Below are positions 1-23,476 of a stretch of 46,808 bases of DNA, piece by piece. Numbering within the stretch: the stretch's first letter is position 1; each line of letters opens with the position of its first letter. The stretch is from assembly GCA_964449185.1 (NCBI GenBank), contig CAYUYN010000002.1, forward strand, positions 1-46,808. The letters run 5' to 3'. Made by a program: the position numbers and the translations under genes. The notes below the pieces were generated by a model. It saw only the letters and a list, made by a program, of their open reading frames with translations, was not told where the DNA came from and made no database searches. Source of the stretch: an uncultured Anaerolineales bacterium (GTDB lineage Bacteria; Chloroflexota; Anaerolineae; Anaerolineales; UBA6663).

Positions 1-677
1 CCGGATGAGCCGTTGGGAAAGCCCAGTGTGATGATGGCGCTATCGGGCGTGTCGGGCGTGCCCTCGCCGACCAGATTGGCCCCCTCTGCGTAGACTCGCG
101 CCGGCGCCTGGCCCACCAGGCCGCAGATCATGTCGAGCGCGTGTCCGGCCTCGCCAATGACGCGACCCCCGCTCAAGGCGCCGTCCAAGAGCCAGCCCTG
201 TCGGTAGGGGAACCAATCGGCGATGCGGTGGACGACCATCATGGGCGCGTGCAGTGTATCAAGCACTTGGCGCGCTTGCCGTGTGAAGGGGGCCTGGCCG
301 CGGTTGTAACCAGCGGTGTACTGCACGCCGGCCTGCCGCACGGCGGCGACCACCGCCTGGCATTCGGCGTCACTCAGCCCCATGGGCTTCTCGCAAAAAA
401 TATGCTTGCCGGCTTGGGCGGCGCGAATGGAGAGCCCGGCGTGCAGGTGATGCGGGGTGGTGATGAAGACGGCCTCGACCTCTGGGTCGGCGAAGACCCG
501 CTCCGCGTCTGCCGTGGCATAGGCGGCCCCTGTGGCCGCCGCCAGCTCCTGAACGGCCGCGACGTTGGGGTCAACCAGTGCTCGGACGGTATAACAGCCG
601 CTGGCGCGCAGATTGGGCAGGTGCACACCGCGCGCAAAACTGCCGCAGCCGATGATGGCAACGCTGAGGGGGTTCAT
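1..677 (-). CDS. Gfo/Idh/MocA family NAD(P)-dependent oxidoreductase (3' end runs off the window)
   Basis: Not in the ORF track because it is open at the window edge. My translation of the minus strand from ATG at 677 gives MNPLSVAIIGCGSFARGVHLPNL...AGKHIFCEKPMGLS, with an N-terminal Rossmann GxGxxA and the family-typical EKP motif. The ATG overlaps the TGA of the upstream gene (ATGA at 674-677). Confidence 0.8.
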   Translation of the reverse strand, partial: MNPLSVAIIGCGSFARGVHLPNLRASGCYTVRALVDPNVAAVQELAAATGAAYATADAERVFADPEVEAVFITTPHHLHAGLSIRAAQAGKHIFCEKPMGLSDAECQAVVAAVRQAGVQYTAGYNRGQAPFTRQARQVLDTLHAPMMVVHRIADWFPYRQGWLLDGALSGGRVIGEAGHALDMICGLVGQAPARVYAEGANLVGEGTPDTPDSAIITLGFPNGSS

Positions 678-1597
678 TGGGCGGTTTCCGGACCGACGGC
701 CGCCCTGGAGGCCAGCGGCACAGGGCGAGCCGCAGGGCGGACGATAGGCGCATATATGTCCGGCCGGCGGTCGGTGAGCATTTCGCTCCGCCAGATTTGA
801 TCGCCTTCGCGCGTAAAACTGTGGGCCAGGCGCGGCCGATCGAGGTCCACGCGCGCAAGCGCGAGGCCGGGATAGCGGCCGGCATCGGCCAGGCTGATGC
901 CATCGGGCGCGATGACGCTGCTATGGCCGATGAGCATGCCCGGCCGCCAGGCCTGGTCGAGGCCGCAGCCATAACAGATGGGCACGTGGATGACACCGTT
1001 ATAAATGGCCGGACTGCGCAGCATAACATTCATCAGCTCGTCACCCCAACCGCTCATCACATGCGGCCAGAAGATGATCTCGGCGCCATTCAAGGCCAGA
1101 CAACGGGCGCTTTCGGAGAAGGAGTTGTCATGGCAGATCTGGACGCCGATCGTGCCAAAACCCAGGCTAAATACCGGCCAACTGTCGCCCGGTACGATCC
1201 CCAGGGCGCATTCGGCCTGGGTGGGATGGACTTTGCGATAGGCGCCGACCAGGACTCCGGCGCGGTCCAGCACCAGCGCGGCATTGCTGGGGATGCCATT
1301 CAGGAGGCCCCAGACCGGGGCGATGACGGCCATACAGCGACGGCGCGCAACGGCGCCCAACTGATCCACGGTCTCTTCGACCGCGCCGTGGAGCTCGGCC
1401 CAAAGATTGTCGCGGGTGATGTCGATGCCCATGGTATTAAAGTGCTCGCCCAGGCAGGCCACATCGGCGCCGCGCTGGCCGGCTTGTTCCAACCAGTGCA
1501 CGGCCTCGCGGAAGTTGGCCGCGCGCTTGTCCGCATTAGAGGCGCCGCTCGGGTCGCTGGGAAGCTGTACCGCTGCAATTGTGATTTCTCGAGCCAT
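674..1597 (-). CDS. Carbon-nitrogen hydrolase (nitrilase superfamily) amidase-like protein
   Basis: 307-aa ORF. Glu-Lys-Cys triad context is visible (CLGEHF, YRKVHP, VQICHDNSF). A GGAGGT Shine-Dalgarno lies upstream of ATG 1597. Confidence 0.85.
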   Translation of the reverse strand: MAREITIAAVQLPSDPSGASNADKRAANFREAVHWLEQAGQRGADVACLGEHFNTMGIDITRDNLWAELHGAVEETVDQLGAVARRRCMAVIAPVWGLLNGIPSNAALVLDRAGVLVGAYRKVHPTQAECALGIVPGDSWPVFSLGFGTIGVQICHDNSFSESARCLALNGAEIIFWPHVMSGWGDELMNVMLRSPAIYNGVIHVPICYGCGLDQAWRPGMLIGHSSVIAPDGISLADAGRYPGLALARVDLDRPRLAHSFTREGDQIWRSEMLTDRRPDIYAPIVRPAARPVPLASRAAVGPETAQ

Positions 1598-1655
1598 GCG
1601 CTACCTCCGGCAAATGATCAGCTGTTCAGGGCAGACCGCCCAGCTTTGACTGACA

Positions 1656-2633
1656 TCACTGAACCAAAAGGGTCCGCTCGACCCTGAGGTCCACATCGAT
1701 CAGTTGCCGGCCGCCGCGCTGGTAAAGCATGGCCGCACGCCCGTCAACTTCGGCGTGGCGCGCGGCGGCTGGCAAAGACAGCGTCACCACACGGCGGTGC
1801 ACCATCTCCGGCAGGCCGGGCGTTGAGAGCTGAAAGCGGCCGGCGGCGAGCGGTTCGATGTTGAGGTGGCGGCGCGTATAGCGATAGTCCATTGGGTCTT
1901 CGACCCGCGCCAGCCACACATCGTCGCCGCCTTCGGCCACAATGACTTCCATCCGTTCGCGGAGCTGCGCGGCGGAACAATCTTTGCGCGGATGAATGGG
2001 CTTTTCCATCGGGCAGTGCAGGTAGTCGATGATCCAGCCGGCGTCGCGCCGGGCCTGCGAGATTTTTCGGAAAGGGTCAAACTCACAATCAAACGCATCG
2101 GGTCCCTGGTCATGCAGGAACACGCGGTTGAGCCAGAGCAGGTCGGCGTCATCCGGCCGGTTCAGCGCCTCGTACAATGCCATCGCGCCCAGGTAACCGT
2201 AGGCACGGCACTTCTCCAGTATCTCGTCGGTCATATTGAAGTTGCCGCCGGGCGAGCAGTAAACAGTCACCGGTTCGCCGATGGCCGCCTCCAGGACCTG
2301 CTTGGCCTCACCCAGCTCGCGATCGACATTGGCCAAGTTGAGGTAGGTGTGGGACCAGGAATGGGCTCCCACGCCCCAGCCGCGGGCCAAGAGATCGCGC
2401 AGCTCCTCCGCTCCCATGTGCTTCAGGCCGTTGTACGATGACTGCATCAGGCGCCGGATCTCGCCCATTTGGCCGACCACCACCTCCACGTGCCCGGGGA
2501 CACCGAACTCGCCCAAGATGGGGACGGTGTAGCGGTGCAGGTCGCTGAGGGCCTCGTCAAACGTAATGGAGTAAACCCAGCGCTTGTTACCTAACCAGTG
2601 GCAAACTGCAATCTCGTTGGTGGTGGTGTCCAT
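1656..2633 (-). CDS. Polysaccharide deacetylase-like (CE4/NodB-fold) protein
   Basis: The track ORF 1656-2744 begins at TTG with a Pro/Arg-rich extension. I trimmed it to ATG 2633 (MDTTTNEIAV), which has an AGGAG Shine-Dalgarno 5 nt upstream. NodB-like motifs are ITFDE (a TFDD variant) and HSWSH (HxxxH). Confidence 0.75.
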   Translation of the reverse strand: MDTTTNEIAVCHWLGNKRWVYSITFDEALSDLHRYTVPILGEFGVPGHVEVVVGQMGEIRRLMQSSYNGLKHMGAEELRDLLARGWGVGAHSWSHTYLNLANVDRELGEAKQVLEAAIGEPVTVYCSPGGNFNMTDEILEKCRAYGYLGAMALYEALNRPDDADLLWLNRVFLHDQGPDAFDCEFDPFRKISQARRDAGWIIDYLHCPMEKPIHPRKDCSAAQLRERMEVIVAEGGDDVWLARVEDPMDYRYTRRHLNIEPLAAGRFQLSTPGLPEMVHRRVVTLSLPAAARHAEVDGRAAMLYQRGGRQLIDVDLRVERTLLVQ

Positions 2634-2712
2634 GCGACTCCTAAGTCGTTGGCGACGCGGCCGCGTGCACCGGGGGCTAGGCCTGGTAGGTGCATGCGGC
2701 GGTGGATGCGTC

Positions 2713-3399
2713 TTAGCGGGTAATCTGCCGGCACGCCTGGGCAAAGTCGGCCGACAGGGCGGTATAGCCGATCAGGTGTTCAAAGTTGCGCAGCGTAATG
2801 CGGTTGATCCAGCCATAATCCGGGGCACCCTCGATCTTTGTATCGGGCATCTCGGGCGCATTCGAACAGTCGCGCAGCAAGATGACGCGGTAGTTGCGGC
2901 CCACCGCTTCGGCGCAGGTGTAGTGCAGGCAGGCACGCTGGCTGTAACCCACCACCAACAGCGTTTTGATGTCGTGGCTGCGCAGGTGCTGGTCGAGGAA
3001 GGTGTCGTGGAAGCCGCTCCAGATCCATTTAGGAATATTGCGCTCATGCGGACGCGGCGCCACGCAGTCGAGGTATTCGGGCTTGAAATCCGGTAGCGCG
3101 GCCCAGCCCTCCAGCCCTTCCATTTTCTTGGTACGGCCCCAGACTTCGGCGACGATGTTGCCGGTGTCGGCCACCAAGTACAGGTCATTGTGGACATAGG
3201 CGACCAGCATGCCGCACTCGCGCGCGGCAGCCAGCGCCGGGGCGATGAAGTTCTCGGTGGTAGGGTTGGGAGCCCGCCCATCAACATCCACCAATAAGAA
3301 GGCGCACTGCTCGAAAGTAAGCGGAAAATCTTCATAGGCGTAGTCATGGCCGCCCTCGTAATCCTTGTAGTAACGAATCGGAATGGTGATTTTCGACAT
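2713..3399 (-). CDS. Isochorismatase-family cysteine hydrolase
   Basis: 228 aa. Asp/Lys/Cys triad contexts are FLLVDVDG, PKWIWSGF and GYSQRACL. AAGGAGG lies upstream of ATG 3399. It is a paralog of 37628-38377 (shared NYRVI(L/T)LRDC and GYTA motifs). Confidence 0.8.
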   Translation of the reverse strand: MSKITIPIRYYKDYEGGHDYAYEDFPLTFEQCAFLLVDVDGRAPNPTTENFIAPALAAARECGMLVAYVHNDLYLVADTGNIVAEVWGRTKKMEGLEGWAALPDFKPEYLDCVAPRPHERNIPKWIWSGFHDTFLDQHLRSHDIKTLLVVGYSQRACLHYTCAEAVGRNYRVILLRDCSNAPEMPDTKIEGAPDYGWINRITLRNFEHLIGYTALSADFAQACRQITR

Positions 3400-3449: not shown

Positions 3450-4709
3450 CTAGCGCCGGTGGCGGTCTGCGACGGTGCGAACGATGTCGACAATCAATTG
3501 GCAGTGCGTGGGGGTGTAACGGTCACTGACAATCCAGCGGATAAAGACGTCGAGCACCGCATTCGCGTTTGGATAATCCTCCGCGCGATAGGTGTAAGCG
3601 CGGGAGGCCGGCGGCAGCGAGAAGGGGTAGGTCTGGCTGGCAGCCTGCTGCTGCAGGAACACTGCCGAAGCCGGCATGAGGTAGTAACGGGCCTGTCCCG
3701 CGCCGAGAATCCCCAGGTCGTGCATCTCGCGCGCGAACGTTTCGGCATCGCAGCGAAAGGCCTCCGGCTCAAGGTTGAAGCCCGCCATCCAGCAGGAGAA
3801 CACTTCCTGGTAAGCTGGGATCCGAGGCGGCGTTATGCCCGGGATGGTGGCCAGCTCCTGGTAAATCCAGCGCATCATCTGGTCGCGCTGGACCACCTGG
3901 TCGCGGATGATTTCCAACTGCGCCAGGCAGATGGCGGCGGTGGACTGCGCCATGCGATAAGCATAGCCGCACTCGGTATGCACGCGGCCGAACTGCGGGA
4001 CCATTTCGCCGCCGCGACTCTGCCCGATAAACCGCATGCGCTCGGCCAGGTGATCGTCGTTGGTCACGATGGCGCCGCCCACATCCGAGCCCATCGTTTT
4101 TTCGGCGTCAAAAGAAAAGGTGGTGGCCAGCGACAGCGTGCCCACCAGCCGGCCCTTATAGGTGCCAAAGATGGCCTGGCAGGCGTCTTCGTAGACCATC
4201 AGGCCGTGCTTTTCCGCCAGGGCGCAGATCGGGTCCATGTCGCACACGATGCCGGTCTTGTGGACGACCAGGATGGCGCGCGTTCGGTCGGTAATGCAAG
4301 GCTCGATGGTGGCAGCGCTCAGGTTAAGCGTGCCGGGCTCGGTATCGGGAAAGACGGGGATATAGTCCTCACGGCACAGCCCCTGGATTGTGCCGTAATC
4401 AGTGACCGGGCTGACAATAATCTCGTCGCCGGGCGCGAAGGGCAGGGCGGCGGCGATGACGGCCAGCGCCGGGGTGCAGCCGGGCGTAGCGATGCAGTGC
4501 TTGACCCCCACGGCTTCCGCAAAGGCCGTTTCAAAGCGTCCGACCATATCGGCCGTCAGCCCGCTGTCAATCACCTCCTGCAAGTACTTGAGGCAGTTTG
4601 GCCCCATGGTGCGCGGAAAAGCATAGGGTATCGGGCCTTCCTGGTAGGGCAGGGCCTTGGGGCCATAGGCTGCGGGGACGGCGGACGGGAGCGTAGGCGG
4701 CCTGGTCAT
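3450..4709 (-). CDS. DegT/DnrJ/EryC1/StrS-family PLP-dependent (sugar) aminotransferase
   Basis: Track ORF 3450-5054 trimmed to ATG 4709 (MTRPPTLPS). This start forms an ATGA overlap with the stop of the upstream gene. The PLP-lysine motif FSFDAEKTMGS is present, with fold-type I context (ATPGCTPAL, VYEDACQA). Confidence 0.8.
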   Translation of the reverse strand: MTRPPTLPSAVPAAYGPKALPYQEGPIPYAFPRTMGPNCLKYLQEVIDSGLTADMVGRFETAFAEAVGVKHCIATPGCTPALAVIAAALPFAPGDEIIVSPVTDYGTIQGLCREDYIPVFPDTEPGTLNLSAATIEPCITDRTRAILVVHKTGIVCDMDPICALAEKHGLMVYEDACQAIFGTYKGRLVGTLSLATTFSFDAEKTMGSDVGGAIVTNDDHLAERMRFIGQSRGGEMVPQFGRVHTECGYAYRMAQSTAAICLAQLEIIRDQVVQRDQMMRWIYQELATIPGITPPRIPAYQEVFSCWMAGFNLEPEAFRCDAETFAREMHDLGILGAGQARYYLMPASAVFLQQQAASQTYPFSLPPASRAYTYRAEDYPNANAVLDVFIRWIVSDRYTPTHCQLIVDIVRTVADRHRR

Positions 4710-5668
4710 GGCTGGCCCGCCGGGCTGGGCTCGGGGTGGAGCATGTGGGCGGCATCGCGCACAGTGCAGACCCAGGCGCGCTCGGGCTTGGCGGCCGCGT
4801 GCTGCAGCAGGGCCTCGAGCATGCGGCAGTCGGGGTCGTGCAGGTAGTGGGTATAGGGGTGCCAGAGCGGCACCCACAACTTGCGGGTGGCGTGGGCGTA
4901 GTCGAGCGTGGCCAAATTGAGGCGCAGCCAATCGTCTAGGGCGTGCGGAAGGGACCAGGGCGCCTGCCAGCCGTCGGGCACCGGCTGGTGACCGTGCTCG
5001 AAGCGCCATCGGTTGATGACGGTTTTGTCCACCTCGGGGCGGGTATCGAACCACATCCGGTCGGTCCAGGCATGGAAGGGGATCTCGATGAGCCCGTTGG
5101 GATATTGGTACGGCAGGGCGCGGTCCATCACGCGGACCCAGTCATCGAAGCCCTGCGCGTATACTGCGTCGTCATATTCGCCACTGACCCAGTGGAAGCC
5201 ATTATTGAGGATGGCGTGCTGATTTTCGATCGGCAGGTTGCGCCAACCCGCTTTGTAGCCAAACGGCCCACGCAGTAGGGTGGAGGAAACGCCGAGCTTG
5301 TCATACAGCAGCCGGTTGGCCACGGACAGCTCGAGGTCGAGCTTCGCCCCCGAGATGGTGGCCAGGGGTTGGTGGGAATACGTGTGAGAGTCGATAACGT
5401 GTCCCCGGCGCAGGATCTCCTGCAGGAAGGCGGGAGTCTCACCCTCCAGCCCATTGCACACATAAAAGAAGTGCAGGGTCACGCCGTACTGCTCGGCAAC
5501 CGTGCACAGGCGCAGGGTGTAGTCCTGCACCGCGGGCATAATGCGCCCATGATTAATGCCGTCGGGCGCATACCCGGCGCACATCTCCAGGTCATAAGAA
5601 AGTGCCACCGCGCACCTTACGCCCTCGGGCAACTGCACATGCATAGGGCGAACTGGAGGTTCCATCAT
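4706..5668 (-). CDS. Polysaccharide deacetylase-like (CE4/NodB-fold) protein, divergent
   Basis: 320 aa. The His motif is VIDSHTYSH. The first motif is degenerate (LSYDLE in place of TFDD). No signal peptide. Confidence 0.7.
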   Translation of the reverse strand: MMEPPVRPMHVQLPEGVRCAVALSYDLEMCAGYAPDGINHGRIMPAVQDYTLRLCTVAEQYGVTLHFFYVCNGLEGETPAFLQEILRRGHVIDSHTYSHQPLATISGAKLDLELSVANRLLYDKLGVSSTLLRGPFGYKAGWRNLPIENQHAILNNGFHWVSGEYDDAVYAQGFDDWVRVMDRALPYQYPNGLIEIPFHAWTDRMWFDTRPEVDKTVINRWRFEHGHQPVPDGWQAPWSLPHALDDWLRLNLATLDYAHATRKLWVPLWHPYTHYLHDPDCRMLEALLQHAAAKPERAWVCTVRDAAHMLHPEPSPAGQP

Positions 5669-8600: not shown

Positions 8601-9006
8601 GCCAGCGATACCACTCTTCCGGCTCCGAGCGGAAGATCAGGTACTGGAGATCCGAGCGATCCACATCCAGCTTGTAGCGGTCGCCCGCCAACTGCACCTG
8701 AAACCCCGACTGGTCGGGGCCGCCGCCAAACTCCAGGATGAGCTTGGTATCGTTCTCGGTATCGTTATCAGCAAGGCCGATTGCGTCGAAGCGCAGGTCG
8801 ATTTCCAAGGCAAAGGCTTCGGCGGGCGTAAACGGCTGCGTGGAGCACACCTCTAGGCCACCGCTCGCCCCGCCCTGGTTGACGTGAAGGTGCAACTGGC
8901 CCGCCTCGACCGCCCAGGTGCCGTCCGCGCCGCGCACCTCCCAGCCCGCCTGGAGGGCCACCCCCCAATCAGTGACCGAAAGGATAGGATCGCCAGTGCC
9001 GGTCAT
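5689..9006 (-). CDS. Large FG-GAP/VCBS-repeat beta-propeller protein with an N-terminal ConA-like (possibly DUF1080-like) domain
   Basis: 1105 aa. At least nine Ca-binding-type DxDxDG motifs are present (DVDGDG x3, DIDGDG, DWDGDG, DFDGDG, DMDLDG, DLDEDS, DWNQDG), each followed by (E/D)(I/V)(L/I). The N-terminal ~190 aa has a W..G.W.V..G.L pattern. No signal peptide. ATGA overlap with the upstream CN-hydrolase. Confidence 0.75.
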   Translation of the reverse strand: MTGTGDPILSVTDWGVALQAGWEVRGADGTWAVEAGQLHLHVNQGGASGGLEVCSTQPFTPAEAFALEIDLRFDAIGLADNDTENDTKLILEFGGGPDQSGFQVQLAGDRYKLDVDRSDLQYLIFRSEPEEWYRWRFEISGQQLAMLRNGTYYSLHKLHGPRSAGLRVHVYGAPALPARVQIGAVRIEPLPARPADAPAAPTLVDAVQPDEWPMYRRDRRNSAHSPLIGAWGTTPPQVAWSYPLGGWNGDILSRDVDGDGAQEVLILYDGNVSLFRVDGTRLWQRNIDSPRLYEICDLDEDSRQEVILGAESPTHVLVLDAASGQTRYSCALDPEYPVRGLRLGKLDPARRGLQMFVWTQSEIGYCLSFDQGLENGYVLWTYNYVHFNFTPEVVLVDMDLDGLLEVVLATYNSFFVYDGRTGAVKMSLEAPLGRNYGLLIVQDIDGDGYPDIIMLAEQLREHITVVHNEGGRSLRLLYDKFYEQNYPRDLRELRTLPGSVQDWDGDGQVEILYGLYDETDGDLWQTLLINAVTGEVKLTLDNYYPVTLDWLPRGEPVVFLAETRGRGRRQLKLHGDMSSMEMALDGAVHVFQFSGDTAYHRATVPSGELLLEYSSRGFPLNEWAIFMQLRRPLRLAAERGVHIIQPASDSGTHRIIRHYHLDAGGALQAGQSCALPDTLPDGHVMTFCAHPRQPAGGAFALLYAGADTTLYLLDQHGQTLTTFPGGSLPASPVVASLAADAPPRLLVCAASGSMLCLDASDHRQRPKLQWQVPSVWRGHSLYSRQGQAVPVAFDWNQDGRKEILLGQPESRLSIFNAEGQRLWMTILPEEPTFWNYGNFTGGRQFDVFTAYASSAYGGGCGVYTPGQPEPVWQAGNGAYSTAIADFDGDGRDDILTRDLFWRRTLDGATGQDVFPITQWAGYHTPTLVTGADAPEDIGVAWTAGGYSLTVDQRDGTQRWWKPFMGGWRPGAVADVDGDGRLEIGAPTWGKVFTWPPPMAPVEGLGRVLACLDLASGEVRWTYDPGAAMSGVISADVDGDGRPEFIFGTGDGRLLALRGGPDEQRRVVFSVQLPAALSTPVLCDPTGAGRPHLLIGCADGNLYALT

Positions 9007-16840: not shown

Positions 16841-19054
16841 TTACCCCACGCGGGCGAACGGAATGACGAACGGCGTGCGCTGGGCGGTGGTCTGCACCTC
16901 ATAGGCCCAACCGCCGCTGCCATTACCGCGCCCGTGCGCGTCCGCGTGCGGCGCGACGCGCCAGCCGGGCGGCAGCGTGCCGATTAGCGACAACGCCAGG
17001 CCCGGTCGCGTCACCAGTTCGCCGTGCAATTGCTGCTGCTCGGCGTCAAAGCGCAGGTTTTCAACGATCCAGCCGCCCGTAAAGTGATGCGAGGCCGAGA
17101 TGAGCCAGGGATGCGGCCGGCAGGCCTGGGCATGCACCACGGCCACGTCGGCGGGTGGGATGATGACCTCGAAGGCGCCCTGGAACTCGCCCAACCAGCG
17201 CTGCTGCCACCACTCCACGGCACCAAACGCCTGGCCAGGAAGCAGCCCCAGCCACTCCGGCTGAACCTGCACGCGCAGGACGTCGGAGGTCAAGTTGAAT
17301 AGCGCCAGGGCAGGGCCGGCCCCCCAGTCGCTGTCCACGGGCAATTGCCAGATGTGCGGGCCGGAGTCGGGGGCGAGGTGCTCAAACAGATCCAGCGGGC
17401 GGGCCGCCTGACCATAGGCCGGCAGCAGGCGCCGGATGATCTCGAGCCGGTCGGGGGAGAGCCCGCTCAGGTCTTCGCTGACCATCAGGTGTCCCCCGCC
17501 AAAGGCCACGGCGGTGGCCCGCGTGCGGGCCTCGTTCAGCCCGCTGCCGGAGCCCACCTGGATCGAGTCGAAGTCATTGATCCAAAAGCGGCGATGCTTG
17601 TACCACAACGCCCCGCCGGTGCTCAGGCCGCGAGCATATGATTTGATTTCGGCCGGCCAGGCGCCGGCATGGCCGATGTCGGCCGCGATGCGCACTGAAT
17701 CGGCATAACCAAGCTGGATGTTGGTGTGGCATGAACACGGTGCCAGGTGGCTCGCCTGGCCGGTGGCCTCGCGGAAAGTGGCATAGCTCTGAGCATACAG
17801 TTCGGCGGCCGGGTAGGCCGACTGGCGGGCCGCGCTCGCAATGAGCTCGAAGAAATCGAGCTTCCAATAGACGCAGTGCCAGTCCGCTTGCATGCGGTGC
17901 ATTTCGCGCGCCCACTTGGCCTGGACCGCGGGCAGGCTGCCATCGAACAACCGTACTGGCCAGGGTTTTGAAGAATGCCCCGGCAACTGTCCCCAGACAG
18001 CCGCGTGGGTGAGGTACGGCTGCCCGTCGGCATCCTGGGCAAGCAGGGGCTGCACGTTCTCGACGCCCGGGCAGTTATCGGTAACACAGAACGGGCTGTA
18101 CCAAAGCCCCAGTTCCAATCCCCGCCGGCGGATCTCAGCAGCCAGCCAGGGCATCCCTTCTGGAAACCGTTCGGGGTCGGATTCGTCCCAATAGCCCCAA
18201 TTGGCGTCCGGCTCCCAGCCATGATCCAGCAACATCAGCCGGCGCATGGGCTGGGGATAGCTGGCGAACAGCTCGGCGACGGTTTCAGAGTTGCTCAGAA
18301 CAAAATCGCGGTGGATGGCCGTTCGGTAGCTGTACCAAGTCATCATGCCCACGATAGGCGGGTCGTCGAAGCGCCGGCCGTGGTGGGCCTGCACATCGGC
18401 GGCATAGCGCTCGAGCAGCGCCAGCGGGTCTGCGGCGCTCATCCAGACCAGCACATCCAGCGGCGCCTCGGCGCCGGGCTCGACCTGCACGTCGAGCATT
18501 TGCCAGGCCGTCACCCGGTCTAGCCGGTGGCCGGCTGTTGCCTGCGGTGCGGCGTCGATTCCATTGTGGCCGTGACGCTGGCGCAAGAAACCCCACAGCC
18601 ATGCCTGCCGCTGCCCGGCCTCATAGAGCACGGTCTGGAGGCTGCTGCGCTGGAAGGTGCCGTCCCGGTCTTGCGGTTCGCGGAGGTGCCCGCCGAAGAT
18701 GAGGACGGAGGCGGGCGCCGGACTCAAGTCTGACAGGCGCTTGACCCCGCACCAGCCGCACTCACCGGCATCCAAAAAGACGCGCCAATCCGGCTGTGCG
18801 GGCTGCGGCAAGTCCGTAAAATGTATGCGCACATGCTGGAGCTGACATGGCGCGGTGCCGGTGTTGCGCACGCGGGCTTCCAAGCGGAAACCTGCGGCCA
18901 GACGTGACCAGGTGCCAGTCCAGACGAGGGGAGTGCCGGGCACGGGGATAGAAAAGGTGCCGCCCTCCGCAGCGAACTGCTGGGTAATCTCAGCCGCGGA
19001 CGCTGCACCGACCTCGAGGCTGATGTGCAGCTGCGGCTTATCAAATGGGTTCAT
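16841..19054 (-). CDS. Clan GH-D (GH27/GH36-like) alpha-galactosidase-like glycoside hydrolase
   Basis: 737 aa. Motifs VYWKLDFF, RIAADIG and RFWINDFDSIQVG parallel those in 14509-16836. No signal peptide. Confidence 0.7.
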   Translation of the reverse strand: MNPFDKPQLHISLEVGAASAAEITQQFAAEGGTFSIPVPGTPLVWTGTWSRLAAGFRLEARVRNTGTAPCQLQHVRIHFTDLPQPAQPDWRVFLDAGECGWCGVKRLSDLSPAPASVLIFGGHLREPQDRDGTFQRSSLQTVLYEAGQRQAWLWGFLRQRHGHNGIDAAPQATAGHRLDRVTAWQMLDVQVEPGAEAPLDVLVWMSAADPLALLERYAADVQAHHGRRFDDPPIVGMMTWYSYRTAIHRDFVLSNSETVAELFASYPQPMRRLMLLDHGWEPDANWGYWDESDPERFPEGMPWLAAEIRRRGLELGLWYSPFCVTDNCPGVENVQPLLAQDADGQPYLTHAAVWGQLPGHSSKPWPVRLFDGSLPAVQAKWAREMHRMQADWHCVYWKLDFFELIASAARQSAYPAAELYAQSYATFREATGQASHLAPCSCHTNIQLGYADSVRIAADIGHAGAWPAEIKSYARGLSTGGALWYKHRRFWINDFDSIQVGSGSGLNEARTRATAVAFGGGHLMVSEDLSGLSPDRLEIIRRLLPAYGQAARPLDLFEHLAPDSGPHIWQLPVDSDWGAGPALALFNLTSDVLRVQVQPEWLGLLPGQAFGAVEWWQQRWLGEFQGAFEVIIPPADVAVVHAQACRPHPWLISASHHFTGGWIVENLRFDAEQQQLHGELVTRPGLALSLIGTLPPGWRVAPHADAHGRGNGSGGWAYEVQTTAQRTPFVIPFARVG

Positions 19055-19917
19055 GAAGGTAGTGTCTCCAGAACGCGCGCCAGCATAGTATCGAAGGACA
19101 CCTGCGGCTCGCCAAACCAGTCGCGCATGCGGCTCACGTCCGCGTACACCGAGTTTTCTAGGCCGCCGCTGGGCCGATCAAAAATCACCCGGCCCCGGCA
19201 TAAGCCCTGCTGAATGGCCTCGGCCAGCTCACGCCGCGTCCAGACGTGTGGATGGCAGCAATTCACTAGCGCGGGGGGAGAGGCCACGCGGTCTGCGGCC
19301 TCACGCGTGACCCGTACGAAATCATCAAGCGCGATGACTTGAATGCTGCTGTCGGGGTTGGGGCCGAGCGACCGCGCGGCCAGGATGGACTCGGCCAATG
19401 AGCGGATGACACCCAGCGTGGCGCTGTTGGCGTGCGCATAGCGGACGTGGATGCCCTGACGGCCGCCCCGGTTGCAAAAGAAGTCAATGAGGCGTTCCTG
19501 GGCGTAGCGGCAGCGGCCGTAATCACTGGTCGGGCGGCAAGGGGCGTCTTCGGCCGGTGCGCCGGGTTGGTCGCCGTAGACGTTAATCGTGGAGCCGTTG
19601 ACGATATTCGCAATGCCGGCATAGCGCTCCACCACCCGGCCCACGCCATAGAAATTCAGCTCCCACAGGCGATCGGGCCGGCTGGGCTCCCAAATCTCCA
19701 GGAACAATGTGTCAACGTCCGGCAGGGCGCGCGGGTCGTCCTGGAGTACGTCAAAGCGGATGGGATGGCAGCCGGCCGGGATGCGGCGATCGGGCGCGGC
19801 TTGATCTTCGAAGCGCGCGGCGCCGTAGACCGTCCAGCCGTTGGCCACTAAGGCGGCCGCCAGAGCGTGGCCGACCATGCCGGTGACGCCTAACACTAAG
19901 GCGGTGCGAGTAGTCAT
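19051..19917 (-). CDS. NAD-dependent epimerase/dehydratase-like extended SDR, atypical (YxxxR)
   Basis: ATG 19917 (MTTRTALVLGVTGMVG) chosen over TTG 19929. GxxGxxG is present. The active-site segment reads YGRCRYAQE, where the two paralogs in this window read YGLTKCLQE and YGLSKHLQE. ATGA overlap with the next gene. Confidence 0.7.
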   Translation of the reverse strand: MTTRTALVLGVTGMVGHALAAALVANGWTVYGAARFEDQAAPDRRIPAGCHPIRFDVLQDDPRALPDVDTLFLEIWEPSRPDRLWELNFYGVGRVVERYAGIANIVNGSTINVYGDQPGAPAEDAPCRPTSDYGRCRYAQERLIDFFCNRGGRQGIHVRYAHANSATLGVIRSLAESILAARSLGPNPDSSIQVIALDDFVRVTREAADRVASPPALVNCCHPHVWTRRELAEAIQQGLCRGRVIFDRPSGGLENSVYADVSRMRDWFGEPQVSFDTMLARVLETLPS

Positions 19918-20072
19918 ATTGGCTGCCAACCAGCGCGGCTTAGACAGCGTTCAATCACGAGGGCAGCCCTGCTGAACTGAAAATGAGTGGCTCGCGCGTG
20001 CGCTGAATGAGGGGCGACGGGGCAACGCCTGGGCGCCGGCTCATAGCCCGCCGGCCCTCTCGGTTGGGCACG

Positions 20073-20984
20073 CTAGCCCTTGACCCCGGTGATGACCACG
20101 CCCTGAATAAACTGCCGTTGAAACAGGAAGAACAGCAGCGCCATCGGCAGTGAGCTCAGCACACTGGCGGCCATTAAGAGATCGTAGCGCGGCAACTGGC
20201 CCACGCCGGCGGCGGCGCCGAAATTGGCCACGATCTGTGCGACGGTCAGCAGGCTTGTTTTTTGAATGTAGAGCAGGGGGCCAAAGAAGTCGTTCCAGGT
20301 GGCATTGAAGGTGAAAACGGCTAATACGGCCAGCACCGGCGCGCTCAACGGCACGATGACCCACAAGAAGAGCTGGAACGTGCTGCAACCGTCAATGCGG
20401 GCGGCATCGTCAATCTCGCGCGGGATGGTCAGCATGTACTGCCGCAGCAGAAAGATGGCCCAGGCCGAGCCAAAGAAGCTCGGCACGATGAGGGGCAGGT
20501 AGGTGTCGCCCCACTTCAGCACCATGGTGAACAAGGCAAAGAGCGGGATCATGGTTACCTGCGCCGGCAGCATCATGGTGGCCAGGACCGCAATGAACAT
20601 GATGTTCCGATACTTCCACTTCAAGCGGCTGAAGCTAAAAGCAATGACCGTATTGGAGAGCAGCGTGCCGATCTCCACAAAGAACACGATGAATAACGAA
20701 TTGAGGATATAGCGCCACAGGGGCCGATTGGCAGTGAACAGCACCTCCACGTAGTTGCTCCACACCCAATCGGTGGGCAGGATCGTCAAGGGTAGGCGCA
20801 GAATATCGGCCGGCGTTTTGAGCGAGGTCAGCAGCATCCACGTCCAAGGGATTGAGATGACGAAGGCGCCGACACCGAGGACGAGGTACGCCAGTGCTTT
20901 GCTGCCGAGGCTGCGCACACCGTACCAGTCCCACGGGCGGCTGGGCTTAGCTAAGAGGGGCTTGGAGGGGGTGATGGTTGACAT
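20073..20984 (-). CDS. Carbohydrate ABC transporter permease (CUT1, MalG-like)
   Basis: Multi-span hydrophobic protein with an EAA-loop region (IDDAARIDGCSTFQLF). ATG 20984 has AGGTGG 5 nt upstream. An alternative GTG lies at 20993. Confidence 0.85.
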   Translation of the reverse strand: MSTITPSKPLLAKPSRPWDWYGVRSLGSKALAYLVLGVGAFVISIPWTWMLLTSLKTPADILRLPLTILPTDWVWSNYVEVLFTANRPLWRYILNSLFIVFFVEIGTLLSNTVIAFSFSRLKWKYRNIMFIAVLATMMLPAQVTMIPLFALFTMVLKWGDTYLPLIVPSFFGSAWAIFLLRQYMLTIPREIDDAARIDGCSTFQLFLWVIVPLSAPVLAVLAVFTFNATWNDFFGPLLYIQKTSLLTVAQIVANFGAAAGVGQLPRYDLLMAASVLSSLPMALLFFLFQRQFIQGVVITGVKG

Positions 20985-20993
20985 GGCCGCCAC

Positions 20994-21968
20994 CTAGTCC
21001 GGCGTGTCAGACGAATCCTGCGTGTAGTGCACCCAGGATGACGAGCTTTTGAAGACGATCAGGGTGAGCCCTAAGATAAACACGAACAGCACCCAGGCCA
21101 GGGCCGAGCTAAAGCCCATCCGGAACAGGTAGAATGCGTTCTTGTACAGGTAAGTCATGTACACCATCCCGATCTCGCTGGGGACACCCCAGTTACCGGG
21201 ATCGCTGGTCAGGATGAAGAAGGAGGTGAAGGCCTGGCTGGCGCCGATGATGCCGATAACAAGATTGTAAAAGATGACGGGCGTCATCATCGGGAGGGTC
21301 ACGTAGCGCAGTAGGTCCAGGCTGGTGGCGCCGTCGACCTTGGCCGCGTCGTACAGGTCCGTGGGGATGCTCTGCAGCCCGGCCAGGTTGATGATCATCG
21401 AGCCGCCCACCGTCCAAATGCTCATGACGATAAAGGCCGGAATGATCCAGGTAGGGCCGAACCAGTTGGGGCTCGGGATGCCAGCCGAATCGAGGAGGGT
21501 GTTGACCAGCCCAAAATCACGGCTCAGCAGGAAGCGCCAGAGCTGAGCATATGCGACGGCGGCGGTAATGGCCGGCAAGTAATAGATCGTCCGCCAAAAG
21601 GAGACGCCGCGCAAGTTTTGGTTGACCAAGAGTGCCAGCAGCAACCCCAGGACTAGCCCCAGGGGCACGCTCAGGCCGGCAAAATAGAGGGTGTTCCGAA
21701 CGGCTTTCAAGAAGAGGGGGTCTTTGAAAATTTCGGCATAGTTGCCGAGGCCGTGCCAGCGGGGGGGATTGACGATGTCGTATAAGGTGAACGACCAATA
21801 GAACGAAACGATCATGGGGCCGATGGTGAAAAGCAGCATCCCCACCAGCCAGGGGGAGATCCACAACCAGCCTTCGAGGTTGCGCCGCGCATTCCGGCGC
21901 TGCCAGAATGGCTGGCGTGCCGCCGCAGGCAGTGGGACATTGGATGAGAGGGTGCTCACATCGGCCAT
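20994..21968 (-). CDS. Carbohydrate ABC transporter permease (CUT1, MalF-like)
   Basis: 324 aa. N-terminal WLWISPWLVGMLLFTIGP is typical of sugar permeases, and the EAA-type loop is DAAKVDGATSLDLLRYVTLP. GAGGAGA lies upstream of ATG 21968. Confidence 0.85.
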   Translation of the reverse strand: MADVSTLSSNVPLPAAARQPFWQRRNARRNLEGWLWISPWLVGMLLFTIGPMIVSFYWSFTLYDIVNPPRWHGLGNYAEIFKDPLFLKAVRNTLYFAGLSVPLGLVLGLLLALLVNQNLRGVSFWRTIYYLPAITAAVAYAQLWRFLLSRDFGLVNTLLDSAGIPSPNWFGPTWIIPAFIVMSIWTVGGSMIINLAGLQSIPTDLYDAAKVDGATSLDLLRYVTLPMMTPVIFYNLVIGIIGASQAFTSFFILTSDPGNWGVPSEIGMVYMTYLYKNAFYLFRMGFSSALAWVLFVFILGLTLIVFKSSSSWVHYTQDSSDTPD

Positions 21969-22027
21969 CCTGGTCTCCTCGTGATAGCGCTCTCAGACAA
22001 AGAACATTCCGCGGAAGGGAAACTAAG

Positions 22028-22069
22028 CGCCCGCCCCTCTCGGCGATGGCGGTCGAGAGGGGGCGGGCG
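22028..22069 (-). terminator. Strong GC-rich intercistronic stem-loop between the binding-protein and permease genes (attenuator, mRNA stabiliser or partial terminator)
   Basis: Arms are CGCCCGCCCCTCTCG (22028-22042) and CGAGAGGGGGCGGGCG (22054-22069). They pair for ~15 bp with one bulged G around an 11-nt loop. On the minus-strand RNA the stem is followed by a moderately U-rich stretch (CUUAGUUUCCCUUCC). Confidence 0.5.
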
Positions 22070-22078
22070 GTGGAAGGA

Positions 22079-23476
22079 TTAGCCCGAGGCTCCCTTGGCG
22101 AGATCGGTGTTGATCTTGTCATTCACTTCGGTCAGGACATCCATGAGCGGGCGGGTCTCCTCGCCGTCCTGCACCAGGGTCAGTGCGGTGTTGGCATGGC
22201 CGATGGCGATCGAAGCGCTCATGAGCGGCGTGTGTGGGTATACCGTGGCGACTTCGAACGCGCGCTTCATCGCGTCAGGGTTGGGCACCAGGTTCAGGTC
22301 CCAGAATGGCTGCTGGGCGTCGGTGCGCGGCGAGAGGATGGGCGAGTTGGTCCAGTGCTCGGTGATGGGCAGTTGGCCCTCGATGCTGGCCAGGAACTTG
22401 GTCAAGGCCAGGGCTTCCGGCAGGTTCTTGGAGCCGGCCCAGGCATAGTAGGCGGTGCTGTGCCCGATCCCCGCCGCCTCGTTGCCGCTGGCGCTGACGG
22501 GCGAGGTGAAGAAGTTGAGCTTGAACTTCGCTTCGGGCAGTTGGTTGTTCAGTACCCATCCAAAGGCCCAGTCACCGCTGACCATCAGGGCGGTCTTTTG
22601 ATTAATGAAGGCGGAATAGATGTTGAGCTGGTTGGTGCTGAGGGCGCCGCCCGAGGGGGAGACCTTGTCCTTCAGGACCATGTCCACGCAGCGCTGGGCC
22701 GCATCGACGAAGGCGGGTTCGGTCACGCGCGCGGTGACGCCGTCAGCCGACAGTAGGTCGCCGCCGTTGGCCACGACCAAGTCGCCCAGGCCGCTCTGCC
22801 ACTCGGCGCTCATGGCCGAGCCCCACTTTTTGTCGGGGCCTTCACCCGAGGTCATAGCCGCGGCACTCTCGACGAACGCATCCCAGGTCCATTCAGCCTC
22901 GCCGTACTCGTGCGGCAGTTTGACACCGGCGGCGGTGAGCAGGTCTTCGTTGTAGATGGTGCCGGTCGTTTCGACCGAGAAGGGCACGGCCCACAGCGCT
23001 TCCTTGTAGGTATAAGCGCCCGTGGTACTGCGGACGAAGTGGGTCATGTACTCCTGCCACTCCGCGTCGGCGCTCATGGCCTCGGTCAGGTTGACCAATT
23101 GACCGCGGTACATCAGCGGCCAGGCGGCCGGCACGTTCGTGACGGACACATCGGCGGCGTTGCCGGCGGCCATGGCAATGGCTTGCTTGGTGTAATCGAC
23201 CGTGATGGGTTCAAAATCGAGCGTGGGGTACTTGGCCTTCAGGTTAGCTTGCAGTGTTTTCAGCAGGGGGCCCTGCACCGTATCGTTGAAGCCTTCCGTT
23301 CCGTAAAAGCCAAAGGTCAGCTTTACGTTGCGCAGGGCCGGCGCCCCGGCCGTGACCCCTTCGGCGGGAGTCGGGGGCGCGAGAGTCGCCTCCGGCGCGC
23401 AGGCGGCCAGGGCTGCCCCGCTGAGGGTGATGCTGGCCATTCTTAGAAAATCGCGGCGGCTTATGTTCTTATCCAT
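22079..23476 (-). CDS. Extracellular solute-binding protein (family 1, sugar ABC importer), Tat signal plus lipobox
   Basis: Trimmed to ATG 23476 (MDKNISRRDFLRMASITLSGAALAAC), with GGAGAGAGGA 8 nt upstream. It carries a twin-arginine motif SRRDFLR and a lipobox LAAC. Confidence 0.85.
   Translation of the reverse strand: MDKNISRRDFLRMASITLSGAALAACAPEATLAPPTPAEGVTAGAPALRNVKLTFGFYGTEGFNDTVQGPLLKTLQANLKAKYPTLDFEPITVDYTKQAIAMAAGNAADVSVTNVPAAWPLMYRGQLVNLTEAMSADAEWQEYMTHFVRSTTGAYTYKEALWAVPFSVETTGTIYNEDLLTAAGVKLPHEYGEAEWTWDAFVESAAAMTSGEGPDKKWGSAMSAEWQSGLGDLVVANGGDLLSADGVTARVTEPAFVDAAQRCVDMVLKDKVSPSGGALSTNQLNIYSAFINQKTALMVSGDWAFGWVLNNQLPEAKFKLNFFTSPVSASGNEAAGIGHSTAYYAWAGSKNLPEALALTKFLASIEGQLPITEHWTNSPILSPRTDAQQPFWDLNLVPNPDAMKRAFEVATVYPHTPLMSASIAIGHANTALTLVQDGEETRPLMDVLTEVNDKINTDLAKGASG

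Follow-up and report, generated by a model that had tools for sequence, protein, structure and literature searches.

In the glucuronoxylan cluster of Geobacillus stearothermophilus T-6, decorated oligosaccharides are taken up by an ATP-binding cassette (ABC) importer and are processed inside the cell by the GH67 enzyme AguA and by acetyl esterases, including the SGNH type. The oxidation-elimination-hydration ('non-Koshland') clusters of Bacteroides and Alistipes encode a Gfo/Idh/MocA 3-dehydrogenase, a sugar-phosphate-isomerase-like lyase and a DUF1080 lyase/hydratase (bioRxiv 10.1101/2024.03.25.586180). Here we analyse a block of 17 genes in a 46,808-nucleotide (nt) stretch of DNA from an uncultured Anaerolineales bacterium (GenBank assembly GCA_964449185.1, contig CAYUYN010000002.1, positions 1 to 46,808 of the forward strand; the window, below, means this whole stretch). 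We interpret the block as an importer-coupled catabolic operon of at least three modules, a monoderm-type alternative to a polysaccharide utilisation locus. Its family content suggests, with what we judge to be an even chance of being right, that it serves the cytoplasmic breakdown of an imported, O- and N-acylated oligosaccharide that contains an amino sugar and probably a uronic acid, the amino sugar being deaminated by transamination.

Architecture of the gene block

The block consists of 17 consecutive genes on the minus strand, running from position 23476 to position 1, as established from the open reading frame (ORF) map and by direct inspection of starts, stops and upstream sequences. 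The genes are listed here in the order in which they would be transcribed.

22079-23476, minus strand: g17, solute-binding protein (SBP) of the CUT1 type (Pfam SBP_bac_1, 4.2e-19)
20994-21968, minus strand: g16, ABC permease (BPD_transp_1)
20073-20993, minus strand: g15, ABC permease (BPD_transp_1)
19051-19917/19929, minus strand: g14, atypical extended short-chain dehydrogenase/reductase (SDR; Pfam Epimerase, 2.6e-15; NAD motif GVTGMVG)
16841-19054, minus strand: g13 ('GH36a'), GH36-like, 737 amino acids (PDB 6lcj, 2e-19; 1zy9, 4.8e-9)
14509-16836, minus strand: g12 ('GH36b'), GH36-like, 775 amino acids, paralogue of g13 (match to a solved GH36 enzyme, 1e-7)
12830-14512, minus strand: g11, predicted distant GH67-like TIM-barrel glycosidase, 560 amino acids (family profile; AlphaFold2 and Foldseek)
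11752-12828/12846, minus strand: g10, Abhydrolase_7 carbohydrate esterase (Pfam 1.8e-24; Ser in GFSLGG)
9969-11744, minus strand: g09, SGNH esterase fusion, 591 amino acids (Lipase_GDSL_2, 8e-19, residues 333-566)
9003-9965, minus strand: g08, CN-hydrolase (Pfam 1.2e-38; E47/K120/C151)
5689-9006, minus strand: g07, FG-GAP protein, 1105 amino acids (Pfam FG-GAP_3/FG-GAP)
4706-5668, minus strand: g06, CE4-fold deacetylase/amidohydrolase (Polysacc_deac_1, 2.9e-12; HTYSH)
3450-4709, minus strand: g05, DegT-type pyridoxal phosphate (PLP) aminotransferase with a C-terminal extension (Pfam 3.6e-66; Lys K204)
2713-3399, minus strand: g04, isochorismatase-fold cysteine hydrolase (Pfam 1.9e-16; D38/K124/C157)
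1656-2633, minus strand: g03, CE4-fold deacetylase (Polysacc_deac_1, 3.6e-12; TFDE, HSWSH)
674-1597, minus strand: g02, CN-hydrolase (Pfam 3.4e-32; E51/K122/C155)
1-677, minus strand: g01, Gfo/Idh/MocA NAD(P) oxidoreductase, partial, 225 amino acids seen (Pfam 4.5e-26)

The last of these, g01, runs off the contig end at position 1, so that the block may be longer than the 17 genes seen. A preliminary description, drawn from the same DNA, had reported 17 tightly packed co-directional genes with gaps mostly of 0-80 nt and the largest of about 155 nt, and this was borne out. All five of the ATGA start/stop overlaps that it listed are present (at 677, 4709, 9006, 14512 and 19054), and the remaining junctions span 0-79 nt, apart from one gap of 155 nt and one of 110 nt. 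The 155-nt gap (19918-20072) separates the second permease gene from the SDR gene when the ATG at 19917 is taken as the start of g14, the choice also made in an independent gene call on an overlapping assembly. Three of the 4-nt overlaps bridge module boundaries, those between the SDR and GH36a (19054), between GH36b and g11 (14512) and between the CN-hydrolase and FG-GAP genes (9006). By our own estimate, sixteen consecutive same-strand neighbours would arise with p ~0.005 even at 72% neighbour co-orientation. Since the adjacent plus-strand cluster is also co-directional, we regard the block as ordinary operon architecture rather than as an anomaly.

The 110-nt gap (21969-22078, minus strand) lies 3' of the SBP gene, and RNA folding places a long GC-rich hairpin in it, with a long perfect stem CGCCCGCCCCCUCUCG...CGAGAGGGGCGGGCG and without a classical T-tract. 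The fold of the whole gap has a z-score of only -1.4, and a consensus terminator scan did not call the hairpin; no terminator-like site was found in the intergenic gaps within the range scanned, 17000-24200. A hairpin after the SBP gene is a common device for raising the SBP transcript relative to the rest of an ABC operon, and this one is probably a partial terminator or attenuator, or a stabiliser of the SBP transcript.

Pfam assigns to the block SBP_bac_1, two BPD_transp_1, Epimerase/SDR, Abhydrolase_7, Lipase_GDSL_2, two CN_hydrolase, FG-GAP, two Polysacc_deac_1, DegT, Isochorismatase and GFO_IDH_MocA matches. Together with PDB matches for the GH36-like pair, these agree with every family assignment made previously. 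None of the block's proteins reaches an NCBIfam equivalog cut-off and all are therefore divergent members of their families. An export signal was seen in the SBP only among the 17 products, on a crude check of hydrophobicity and twin arginines, again as described before. The operon-like packing thus joins the genes of an importer to those of 14 signal-less products.

A conserved core with accreted modules

To place the block among its relatives, we took 13 distinct loci, each anchored on the ~1100-residue FG-GAP propeller protein, and compared every ORF in them with the proteins of the window; several of these contigs are incomplete. Related loci are given L numbers below. The families that recur beside the propeller gene are:

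DegT (g05): 6 of 13 loci, 58-67% identity
CE4 (g03 or g06 type): 7 of 13 loci, 44-67% identity
CN-hydrolase (g08): 7 of 13 loci, 50-74% identity
second FG-GAP paralogue of ~900-950 amino acids, absent from the window: 9 of 13 loci, 25-30% identity

No counterpart of g14, g12, g11, g10, g09, g02 or g01 was found in any of the 13. Because these seven genes lack counterparts there, the block is composite rather than one conserved unit. It comprises the importer with GH36a, a deeply conserved core from g08 to g03 of which g07 is the signature gene, and the accreted genes g12, g11-g10, g09, g14 and g02-g01. The preliminary description had proposed looking for synteny of the whole block, and this it does not show. 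Only about seven to eight of the 17 genes recur together elsewhere: the permeases, the SBP where the contig reaches it, GH36a, g08, the FG-GAP gene, CE4, DegT and the cysteine hydrolase.

The order in Anaerolineae-type loci runs SBP, permease, permease, GH36a, FG-GAP (~945 amino acids), URO-D, Gfo, CN-hydrolase, FG-GAP (~1100 amino acids), a 618-residue protein, CE4, Gfo, cysteine hydrolase, Lar_N and DegT. It is complete only in L004/L006, and partial segments are present in L007, L012, L013 and L107. The FG-GAP gene also stands with DegT, CE4, CN-hydrolase or cysteine hydrolase genes in Chthonomonadaceae, in Marinimicrobia and in L008, an unassigned metagenome contig with planctomycete-type neighbours, and a genome scan placed relatives of g07 in four phyla; the lineages in which the core recurs are Anaerolineae, Chthonomonadaceae, Marinimicrobia and Planctomycetota. 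In the Marinimicrobia locus L016 an ABC sugar importer is joined directly to FG-GAP, CN-hydrolase, CE4 and DegT genes. A divergent cysteine hydrolase directly follows DegT in L008, L010/L018, L015, L030 and L036, and lies nearby in L006; an APH-family kinase comes next in L010/L018 and L036. More generally, the related loci provide contexts of LacI regulators, MalK, SBPs, an SSF transporter and APH-type kinases, and in none of them was a glycosyltransferase, nucleotidyltransferase or N-acetyltransferase seen next to the core.

URO-D proteins recur in loci related to the g11 module or to the FG-GAP core (L003, 35-4852; L006, 6863-7942; L005, 14246-14704; L107, 10386-11465), and so does a Meth_synt_2 protein in the Marinimicrobia locus L016 (17216-18382); neither type is present in the window. 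Both are zinc-dependent alkyl-transfer or decarboxylase folds, and they are possibly sugar O-demethylases.

The FG-GAP double propeller

The AlphaFold2 model of g07 (pLDDT 85.4, pTM 0.85) has an N-terminal beta-sandwich of about residues 1-190 followed by two beta-propellers. About 22 near-full-length homologues were returned, at 35-55% identity and 99-100% coverage, and in the genome scan the nearest relatives were in metagenome-assembled genomes (MAGs) of Anaerolineae (54-55%), followed by Chthonomonadaceae, Marinimicrobia and Planctomycetota. Plasmid searches found no counterpart of g07 in cultured organisms, and only remote ones of g11 and g13. With the whole model as query, Foldseek returned generic multi-propeller scaffolds of the DDB1, SF3B3 and EMC1 type, with template-modelling (TM) scores of at most 0.33, and the family profile matched PDB entries only at the level of repeats or single FG-GAP blades (~60 residues; YesW, 1e-3).

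Assignment to PL11 or GH150 was considered and dropped: the RGL11_C and Beta-prop_CGLA matches cover a single blade or are sub-threshold, and no carbohydrate-active enzyme is among the top fold matches. The N-terminal beta-sandwich gave a weak match to DUF1080 (PF06439) that spans nearly the whole domain, with an E-value of 0.027 and 15 bits against a cut-off of 26.8. A DUF1080 lyase/hydratase identity is not supported, PF06439 being matched in one of 14 homologues at E<=1.

Three homologues carry export signals, namely P0084 and P0092 (twin-arginine translocation (TAT) type, on unassigned metagenome contigs) and P0088 (Sec type, in a Chthonomonadaceae MAG), whereas the window protein and the Anaerolineae-type copies carry none. 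The propeller family thus changes compartment between lineages. In L008 and L010 the propeller gene follows an N_methyl/SBP_bac_10 (DUF1559-type) gene.

Amino-compound enzymes and oxidoreductases

The remaining core proteins retain the catalytic residues of their families. In the DegT match of g05 (224 bits, cut-off 19.8), which spans the full fold-type I domain, the PLP-binding position is a Lys rather than the His of the dehydratase branch; this residue, K204 in FSFDAEKT, does not vary among seven orthologues. Of the PDB entries, perosamine synthetase 3bn1 matches best (2.7e-50), the best NCBIfam equivalog scores 150 bits against a cut-off of 375, and the locus holds no nucleotidyltransferase gene. 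In an alignment of orthologues, identity across phyla is 57-67%. In a metagenome scan, identity was at least 53% in the top 16 matches and at most 41% in the rest, and the commonest neighbours of the orthologues with flanking sequence were a g03-type CE4 gene and a Gfo/Idh/MocA gene. A more distant DegT homologue, encoded at 11977-13254 of L026, a Rhizobium leguminosarum plasmid (NZ_CP071629.1), is 36% identical at 95% coverage, the C-terminal extension included. It is flanked by shikimate-dehydrogenase-like, DHDPS-family, altronate-dehydratase and aldehyde-dehydrogenase genes, with genes for sugar ABC transporters and for LacI and GntR regulators in the vicinity, and this sugar-acid cluster has a catabolic look. 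By weak analogy, this gene may be a hint of catabolic DegT enzymes in a cultivable organism.

The CE4-fold proteins g03 and g06 score 46.8 and 47.1 bits with Polysacc_deac_1 (cut-off 23.1) and both have the His-x-x-x-His metal motif. Both depart from the canonical TFDD, which is TFDE in g03 and SYDLE in g06. Orthologues of g06 are 64-67% identical in L006 and L013. In Anaerolineae, Chthonomonadaceae and Marinimicrobia loci those of g03 (44-54%) have FG-GAP and DegT as neighbours, and in metagenome contigs (38-43%) DegT. The CN-hydrolases g02 and g08 (112 and 133 bits, cut-off 23.2) show Glu-Lys-Cys triads by motif, which places both in the family; neither reaches an NCBIfam equivalog at branch level. 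The g08 orthologue adjoins the FG-GAP gene each time, at 72-74% identity in Anaerolineae-type loci and 50% in Marinimicrobia.

The cysteine hydrolase g04 (Isochorismatase, 61 bits, cut-off 27) gives sub-threshold NCBIfam matches to RutB and biuret hydrolase, and its Asp-Lys-Cys residues with a nucleophilic Cys place it in the amidase branch rather than among true isochorismatases. C157 is invariant in seven DegT-adjacent homologues, while the triad Asp is present in g04 and replaced in the other six. Homologues at 18-29% identity lie next to or near DegT in L006, L008, L010, L015, L030 and L036.

The best NCBIfam match of g01 is inositol 2-dehydrogenase, with 121 bits on its 225 residues against a cut-off of 355, and the Gfo/Idh/MocA genes that recur in related loci cannot clearly be called its orthologues. 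In g14 the catalytic YxxxK is replaced by YxxxR. The 13 propeller-anchored loci contain no orthologue of g14; its single match, in L016, is 24% identical.

Importer, glycosidase-like proteins and esterases

The SBP g17 begins with a TAT-lipoprotein-type signal, RRDFLRMASITLSGAALAAC, and together with two MalF/MalG-type permeases this identifies a CUT1 importer. The PDB relatives of g17 are generic oligosaccharide binders (5f7v, 1.5e-14; GacH), too distant to suggest any ligand. The permeases g16 and g15 are of the MalF/MalG-UgpA/UgpE type, with NCBIfam UgpA/UgpE and MalF/MalG matches below the equivalog cut-offs. Orthologues of g17 are 58-60% identical in the syntenic Anaerolineae-type loci L004 and L107, and g16 and g15 are 69-78% identical to the permeases of L006 and L107. 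A MalK/MsiK-type ATPase (ABC_tran) was not found among the window ORFs scanned. In CUT1 systems the ATPase is commonly shared and encoded elsewhere; in Marinimicrobia, locus L016 has a gene of the MalK type.

The GH36-like proteins g13 and g12 are 28% identical to each other (3e-38), and both fall below the Pfam Melibiase cut-off of 27, with 17.6 and 13.3 bits respectively. D400 and D459 of g13 align with the nucleophile D327 and acid-base D387 of TmGalA (D339 and D399 in the 1zy9 chain, which carries a 12-residue tag), and D403 and D474 of g12 align in turn with the pair in g13, so that both catalytic residues are retained. The galactose-binding DD(G)W motif is LDHGW in g13 and has no equivalent in g12; because it is altered or lost, alpha-galactosidase specificity is not assumed for either protein. 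Both are predicted, on the aligned residues, to be retaining alpha-glycosidases of clan GH-D, and probably are. Homologues of g13 form ~70 clusters, and the gene is co-located with importer and FG-GAP genes in L006, L013 and L107. Outside the window g12 was seen only as a fragment, in L012.

As a single sequence, g11 has no Pfam match (even at E<=5) and no NCBIfam or PDB match, and in this respect the 560-residue protein remains as described at the outset, without an assigned family. A word-indexed search of 5.8 billion proteins returned only four clusters of homologues, and a profile search of 1.84 billion representatives gave 17 at E<=1e-30 and 233 at E<=1e-10; on these searches g11 appears as a small family within a larger uncharacterised superfamily. 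Profile and model together nevertheless take it out of the unknowns, as a distant GH67-like barrel. The AlphaFold2 model is a (beta/alpha)8 barrel followed by a C-terminal helical bundle. Its top Foldseek matches are GH67 AguA (1k9e and 1k9d; 7e-10, TM 0.46), then GH84 and GH20 enzymes, and a profile of 35 superfamily members matches AguA at 6.9e-19 over AguA residues 341-672, in agreement with a homologous TIM barrel and C-terminal helical domain shared with GH67. The invariant D246, E269 and E275 align with AguA D364, E386 and E392. In AguA, E285 is the acid, and D364 and E392 act as the base. The near-invariant E167 of g11 lies 79 residues before D246, the same spacing as between AguA E285 and D364, and would on that spacing be the counterpart of E285, a region outside the alignment. 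By the GH67 family models (Glyco_hydro_67N/M/C) g11 is not a member, and some members of the wider superfamily give sub-threshold matches to the N, M or C model.

The adjacency of g11 and g10 is kept in L002 (twice) and in L003, the g11-type gene always adjoining an Abhydrolase_7 gene, and the two genes move together as a separate small module accompanied by other transporters, an SSF transporter in one case. In the protein P0169 a g11-like domain is naturally fused to an Abhydrolase_7 domain and a glucuronoyl-esterase-like domain. This conserved adjacency and natural fusion support g10, whose PDB relatives include 3nuz (6e-19) and 6goc, as the functional partner of g11. Most simply, g11 would be a GH67-like glycosidase acting with g10 on an esterified alpha-linked uronic acid, and it points to an additional uronic-acid component of the substrate that had not been foreseen. 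Other fusions in the superfamily combine a g11-like domain with an FG-GAP propeller and a dockerin, or with a GH127-like domain (P0138 and P0152 are among the fused members), and so join in single polypeptides families that are encoded separately in the window.

In g09 the SGNH domain is C-terminal, with its GDS at residues 335-337, and the N-terminal ~320 residues have no Pfam match even at E<=5. In L006 the corresponding place is taken by a 618-residue protein with no relationship to g09.

Proposed pathway and alternative explanations

The preliminary description had the importer feeding a cytoplasmic dismantling of a decorated glycan. The gene content fits this, although the 17 genes are not one conserved unit. 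We propose the following sequence of events. An oligosaccharide would be taken up by the lipid-anchored g17 and the two CUT1 permeases, energised by an ATPase encoded elsewhere. In the cytoplasm, g09 (SGNH) and g10 (Abhydrolase_7) would strip O-acyl or carboxyl-ester groups, and alpha-linked residues would be removed by the retaining GH36-like g13 and g12 and by the GH67-like g11, an enzyme of the alpha-uronidase type and probably inverting. N-acyl groups would come off the amino sugars by the action of the CE4 proteins g06 and g03, the CN-hydrolases g08 and g02 and the cysteine hydrolase g04; three amidase superfamilies would suit acetyl, formyl, carbamoyl or larger acyl groups. The freed amine might then be converted to a ketone by PLP-dependent transamination on g05, and the keto sugar reduced by g01 and/or g14. 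The tight linkage of g07 leads us to guess that it binds or cleaves the amino-sugar-bearing backbone. The released hexose or hexuronate would enter the divergent, galactonate-type aldonate pathway described below.

We favour the catabolic direction because deacetylases rather than acetyltransferases are present, because no glycosyl- or nucleotidyltransferases lie nearby and because LacI, ABC, SSF and kinase contexts recur. Several points tell against this interpretation. To our knowledge, characterised DegT enzymes are almost all biosynthetic, acting on nucleotide-sugars or inososes, and we found no characterised precedent for a catabolic DegT role on a free or glycosidic amino sugar. The CN-hydrolase, isochorismatase-like and CE4-fold families are also typical of the catabolism of ureides and N-heterocycles. 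A single shared substrate is an assumption, since seven of the 17 genes lack co-conservation with the core. Neither Foldseek nor a 20-sequence profile searched against the PDB found a catalytic homologue of g07, which may be non-enzymatic. The model of g11 is only moderately confident (pLDDT 65.6), and the GH36 assignments are made at ~20-30% identity to solved enzymes, which says nothing firm on sugar specificity.

Some of these points also bear on a rather unlikely alternative, in which two independent units happen to be juxtaposed: an alpha-galactoside/uronide operon from the SBP gene to g09, and a unit for amides or other nitrogen compounds from g08 to g01 whose substrate is not an imported glycan. 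The absence of g14, g12, g11, g10, g09, g02 and g01 from the 13 propeller-anchored loci would agree with this, as would the g10-g11 pair standing alone with an SSF transporter, a DegT orthologue clade that is wider than the FG-GAP family and often has no glycosidase nearby, and the presence of CN-hydrolase, isochorismatase-like, CE4-fold, M20 and PALP enzymes, typical of ureide and N-heterocycle pathways. However, the proposed boundary falls at a 3-nt gap (g09/g08) that is followed by a 4-nt overlap (g08/g07), and the two parts are found together elsewhere. In L004/L006 and L107 the importer genes and GH36a share a locus with CN-hydrolase and FG-GAP genes, and in L007 and L013 GH36a does so alone; CE4 and DegT complete the order where the contigs extend far enough (L006 and L013); and the Marinimicrobia L016 joins a sugar importer to the core itself. 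The core might instead run in the aminating direction, the imported sugar being oxidised and then aminated with glutamine by DegT. The CN-hydrolase would then be an omega-amidase that pulls the reaction forward by removing 2-oxoglutaramate, like the amidase of glutamine-transaminase/omega-amidase pairs. Characterised relatives of DegT are indeed nearly all biosynthetic (perosamine synthetase, WecE, ArnB, PseC, Gln:scyllo-inosose aminotransferases), a CN-hydrolase belongs to the conserved core, and the pairing of an oxidoreductase with DegT resembles, from general knowledge, WbpB/WbpE and NtdC/NtdA. We nonetheless think this route improbable. There are deacetylases, but genes for N-acetyltransferases, glycosyltransferases, nucleotidyltransferases and flippases are absent from the vicinity of the core; its surroundings are of the LacI, ABC-importer and kinase type; its FG-GAP partner is exported in some phyla; and Nit/omega-amidase-type models give the CN-hydrolases no higher scores than carbamoylase or nitrilase models do.

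Two further possibilities concern the substrate. The scavenging of a cell-wall glycopeptide, peptidoglycan-like or from a secondary cell-wall polymer, with amidases and peptidases removing peptide or amino-acid substituents, has in our estimate a slim chance. Related loci carry M55 D-aminopeptidase, M20 peptidase and enolase-superfamily (possible dipeptide epimerase) genes as well as APH-family kinases, a family of anomeric sugar kinases, and PgdA/PdaB-type CE4 genes, and the window has an M20 gene at 42456-43845. Set against this, lysozyme, GH73, GH3/NagZ, N-acetylmuramic acid etherase and amidase_2/3 genes are not present, DegT has no role in known muropeptide recycling, and the GH36-like and GH67-like enzymes indicate alpha-linked neutral or uronic sugars. 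It is very improbable that the substrate is an aminocyclitol pseudo-oligosaccharide or glycoside, aminoglycoside- or rhizopine-like, with DegT and Gfo interconverting inosamine, inosose and inositol. In its favour, g01 is matched best by the inositol 2-dehydrogenase model (121 bits), Gln:scyllo-inosose aminotransferases are among the relatives of DegT, APH-family kinases recur, and MocA, one namesake of the Gfo/Idh/MocA family, is an enzyme of rhizopine catabolism. But g01 falls well short of the equivalog cut-off (355) and is not among the genes conserved with the core, the window holds no iolBCDE-type genes, and the closest solved DegT relative is a GDP-sugar 4-aminotransferase rather than an inosose enzyme.

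The breakdown of an imported, acylated amino-sugar oligosaccharide is thus the reading that we retain, and within it a different core chemistry can be imagined by analogy with the non-Koshland clusters. After N-deacylation, DegT would convert an amino-glycoside to a keto-glycoside, g07 would use its N-terminal beta-sandwich or an active site in a propeller to cleave the bond by elimination and hydration, and a Gfo/Idh/MocA enzyme would reduce the product. The start by transamination is proposed for the reason that an amino-glycoside is not oxidisable at the amine-bearing carbon. We consider this scheme distinctly improbable; were transamination-first cleavage true, it would be a new depolymerisation of amino-sugar glycans that resist ordinary glycosidases, and the first function for the double-propeller family of g07.

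If the retained reading is true, the textbook-biosynthetic DegT aminotransferases gain a widespread catabolic branch. Rare N-acylated amino sugars in microbial envelopes and exopolymers are a pool of organic nitrogen for which degradation routes are largely unknown, and soil, sediment and marine heterotrophs would have a route to their carbon and nitrogen. The ~1100-residue FG-GAP double propeller would gain its first functional context, beside core enzymes in four phyla. Candidate new CAZy families or subfamilies would be the two GH36-like ones and the GH67-like one, the latter together with its Abhydrolase_7 partner. The locus offers clonable targets: the SBP for ligand fishing, and DegT, g11, g12, g13 and g07 for assays.

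The divergent cluster and the rest of the window

A 397-nt intergenic region (23507-23903) with two weak promoter-like sites separates the SBP gene from a divergently oriented cluster.

23904-31782, plus strand: divergent cluster, encoding a lactonase-like Amidohydro_2 protein, a galactonate dehydratase, a 465-residue protein, two Epimerase-family SDRs and a 929-residue protein

The galactonate dehydratase matches PRK14017 with 346.8 bits, above the equivalog cut-off of 311. Farther along come a ROK regulator, a Gfo/Idh/MocA gene, a DHDPS-family aldolase and a second enzyme of the galactonate-dehydratase family (309 bits against 311), then a tartronate-semialdehyde-reductase-like enzyme and an SDR. 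Judged by these families, the cluster seems to encode a non-phosphorylative route for aldonates, of the De Ley-Doudoroff (galactonate) type. Such a pathway would suit glycosidase products of the galactose type, and it supports the earlier suggestion of a galactose-type substrate without proving it; the divergent genes are probably the downstream monosaccharide pathway. That speculation was of an alpha-linked glycan with (N-acetyl)galactosamine; the Asp pairs kept in g13 and g12 also speak for it, and the altered or lost DD(G)W motif and the GH67-like g11 speak against a simple form of it. The right-hand pair of SDRs was considered as uronate dehydrogenases of an oxidative uronate route and set aside, there being no NCBIfam equivalog support (the best match, 61 bits, is to an Azf-type dehydrogenase).

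The 465-residue (25875-27272, plus strand) and 929-residue (28993-31782, plus strand) proteins have no Pfam or NCBIfam assignment, the latter giving only a 13-bit hint of GH20 domain 2. Both might be additional glycan-active enzymes belonging to the same regulon. An ORF at 31632-32690 (plus strand) with a partial Gfo/Idh/MocA NAD-binding match (residues 111-187) overlaps both the end of the 929-residue gene and the nominal start of the next, so that boundaries in this stretch are uncertain. That next gene (32620-34404, plus strand) encodes a divergent GroEL-like chaperonin paralogue inside the sugar-acid cluster, with no GroES gene nearby; it scores 318 bits against a subfamily cut-off of 352 and 289 against the GroEL equivalog cut-off of 582. 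As the GroEL match begins only at residue ~56-62, translation probably starts farther downstream than the TTG at 32620.

The M20/M25/M40 peptidase gene of the window is split between overlapping plus-strand ORFs, 42456-42998 (catalytic N-terminal part) and 42898-43845 (dimerisation and C-terminal part). The split may reflect a frameshift in a pseudogene or a fault of the assembly. In the Chthonomonadaceae locus L010/L018 and in the unassigned L008, M20 genes are intact and adjoin Gfo/Idh/MocA genes.

Comparison with known systems

The preliminary description could not match this combination of enzymes with any known pathway. Full-text literature searches, including queries with PDB codes and DUF1080, agree in finding no publication that describes the set. 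The closest parallels are therefore partial. Like the Geobacillus T-6 cluster, the block has a lipoprotein SBP with CUT1 permeases and signal-less esterases and glycosidases that would strip the substrate in the cytoplasm; it shares with that cluster an SGNH and a second esterase, and g11 is a distant homologue of AguA (structures 1k9d/1mqp) with D246, E269 and E275 aligned to D364, E386 and E392 of that enzyme. In contrast, g11 lies below all GH67 Pfam thresholds, in a separate family, and the window lacks xylanase and xylosidase genes and adds the GH36-like enzymes and the amino-sugar core. Raffinose/melibiose-type operons (msm/aga; TmGalA, TtGalA) resemble the block in their CUT1 importer, cytoplasmic clan GH-D enzymes and conserved Asp pair, whereas g13 and g12 are only ~20-30% identical to the known enzymes, have the DDGW motif altered or lost and are ~200 residues longer than TmGalA and TtGalA.

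For the core, the nearest analogues are amino-sugar biosynthesis pairs, WbpB/WbpE and NtdC/NtdA, and the pair formed by inositol dehydrogenase and Gln:scyllo-inosose aminotransferase, in which the same two enzyme families stand side by side. The partners in the window are deacetylases and amidases, not acetyltransferases; the setting is one of importer, LacI and kinase genes without nucleotide-sugar enzymes; and DegT identity drops from at least 53% to at most 41%. It is on account of these differences in partners, context and orthologue separation that we propose that DegT runs catabolically, the biosynthetic pairing being reversed. The non-Koshland clusters are alike in placing a Gfo/Idh/MocA enzyme in a glycan-catabolic cluster, and their keto-sugar intermediates would be plausible DegT substrates; they differ in that the window has no AP_endonuc_2/sugar-phosphate-isomerase-like lyase and its DUF1080 match is far sub-threshold, leaving a resemblance only. 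The PL11 enzymes YesW/YesX and the GH150 lambda-carrageenase share with g07 FG-GAP-type repeat-level matches and a location in glycan loci, but g07 is a cytoplasmic protein of 1105 residues built of a beta-sandwich and two propellers, and the matches are to single blades. The block thus combines, within an ordinary type of locus, a conserved uncharacterised amino-sugar core with three divergent glycosidase families.

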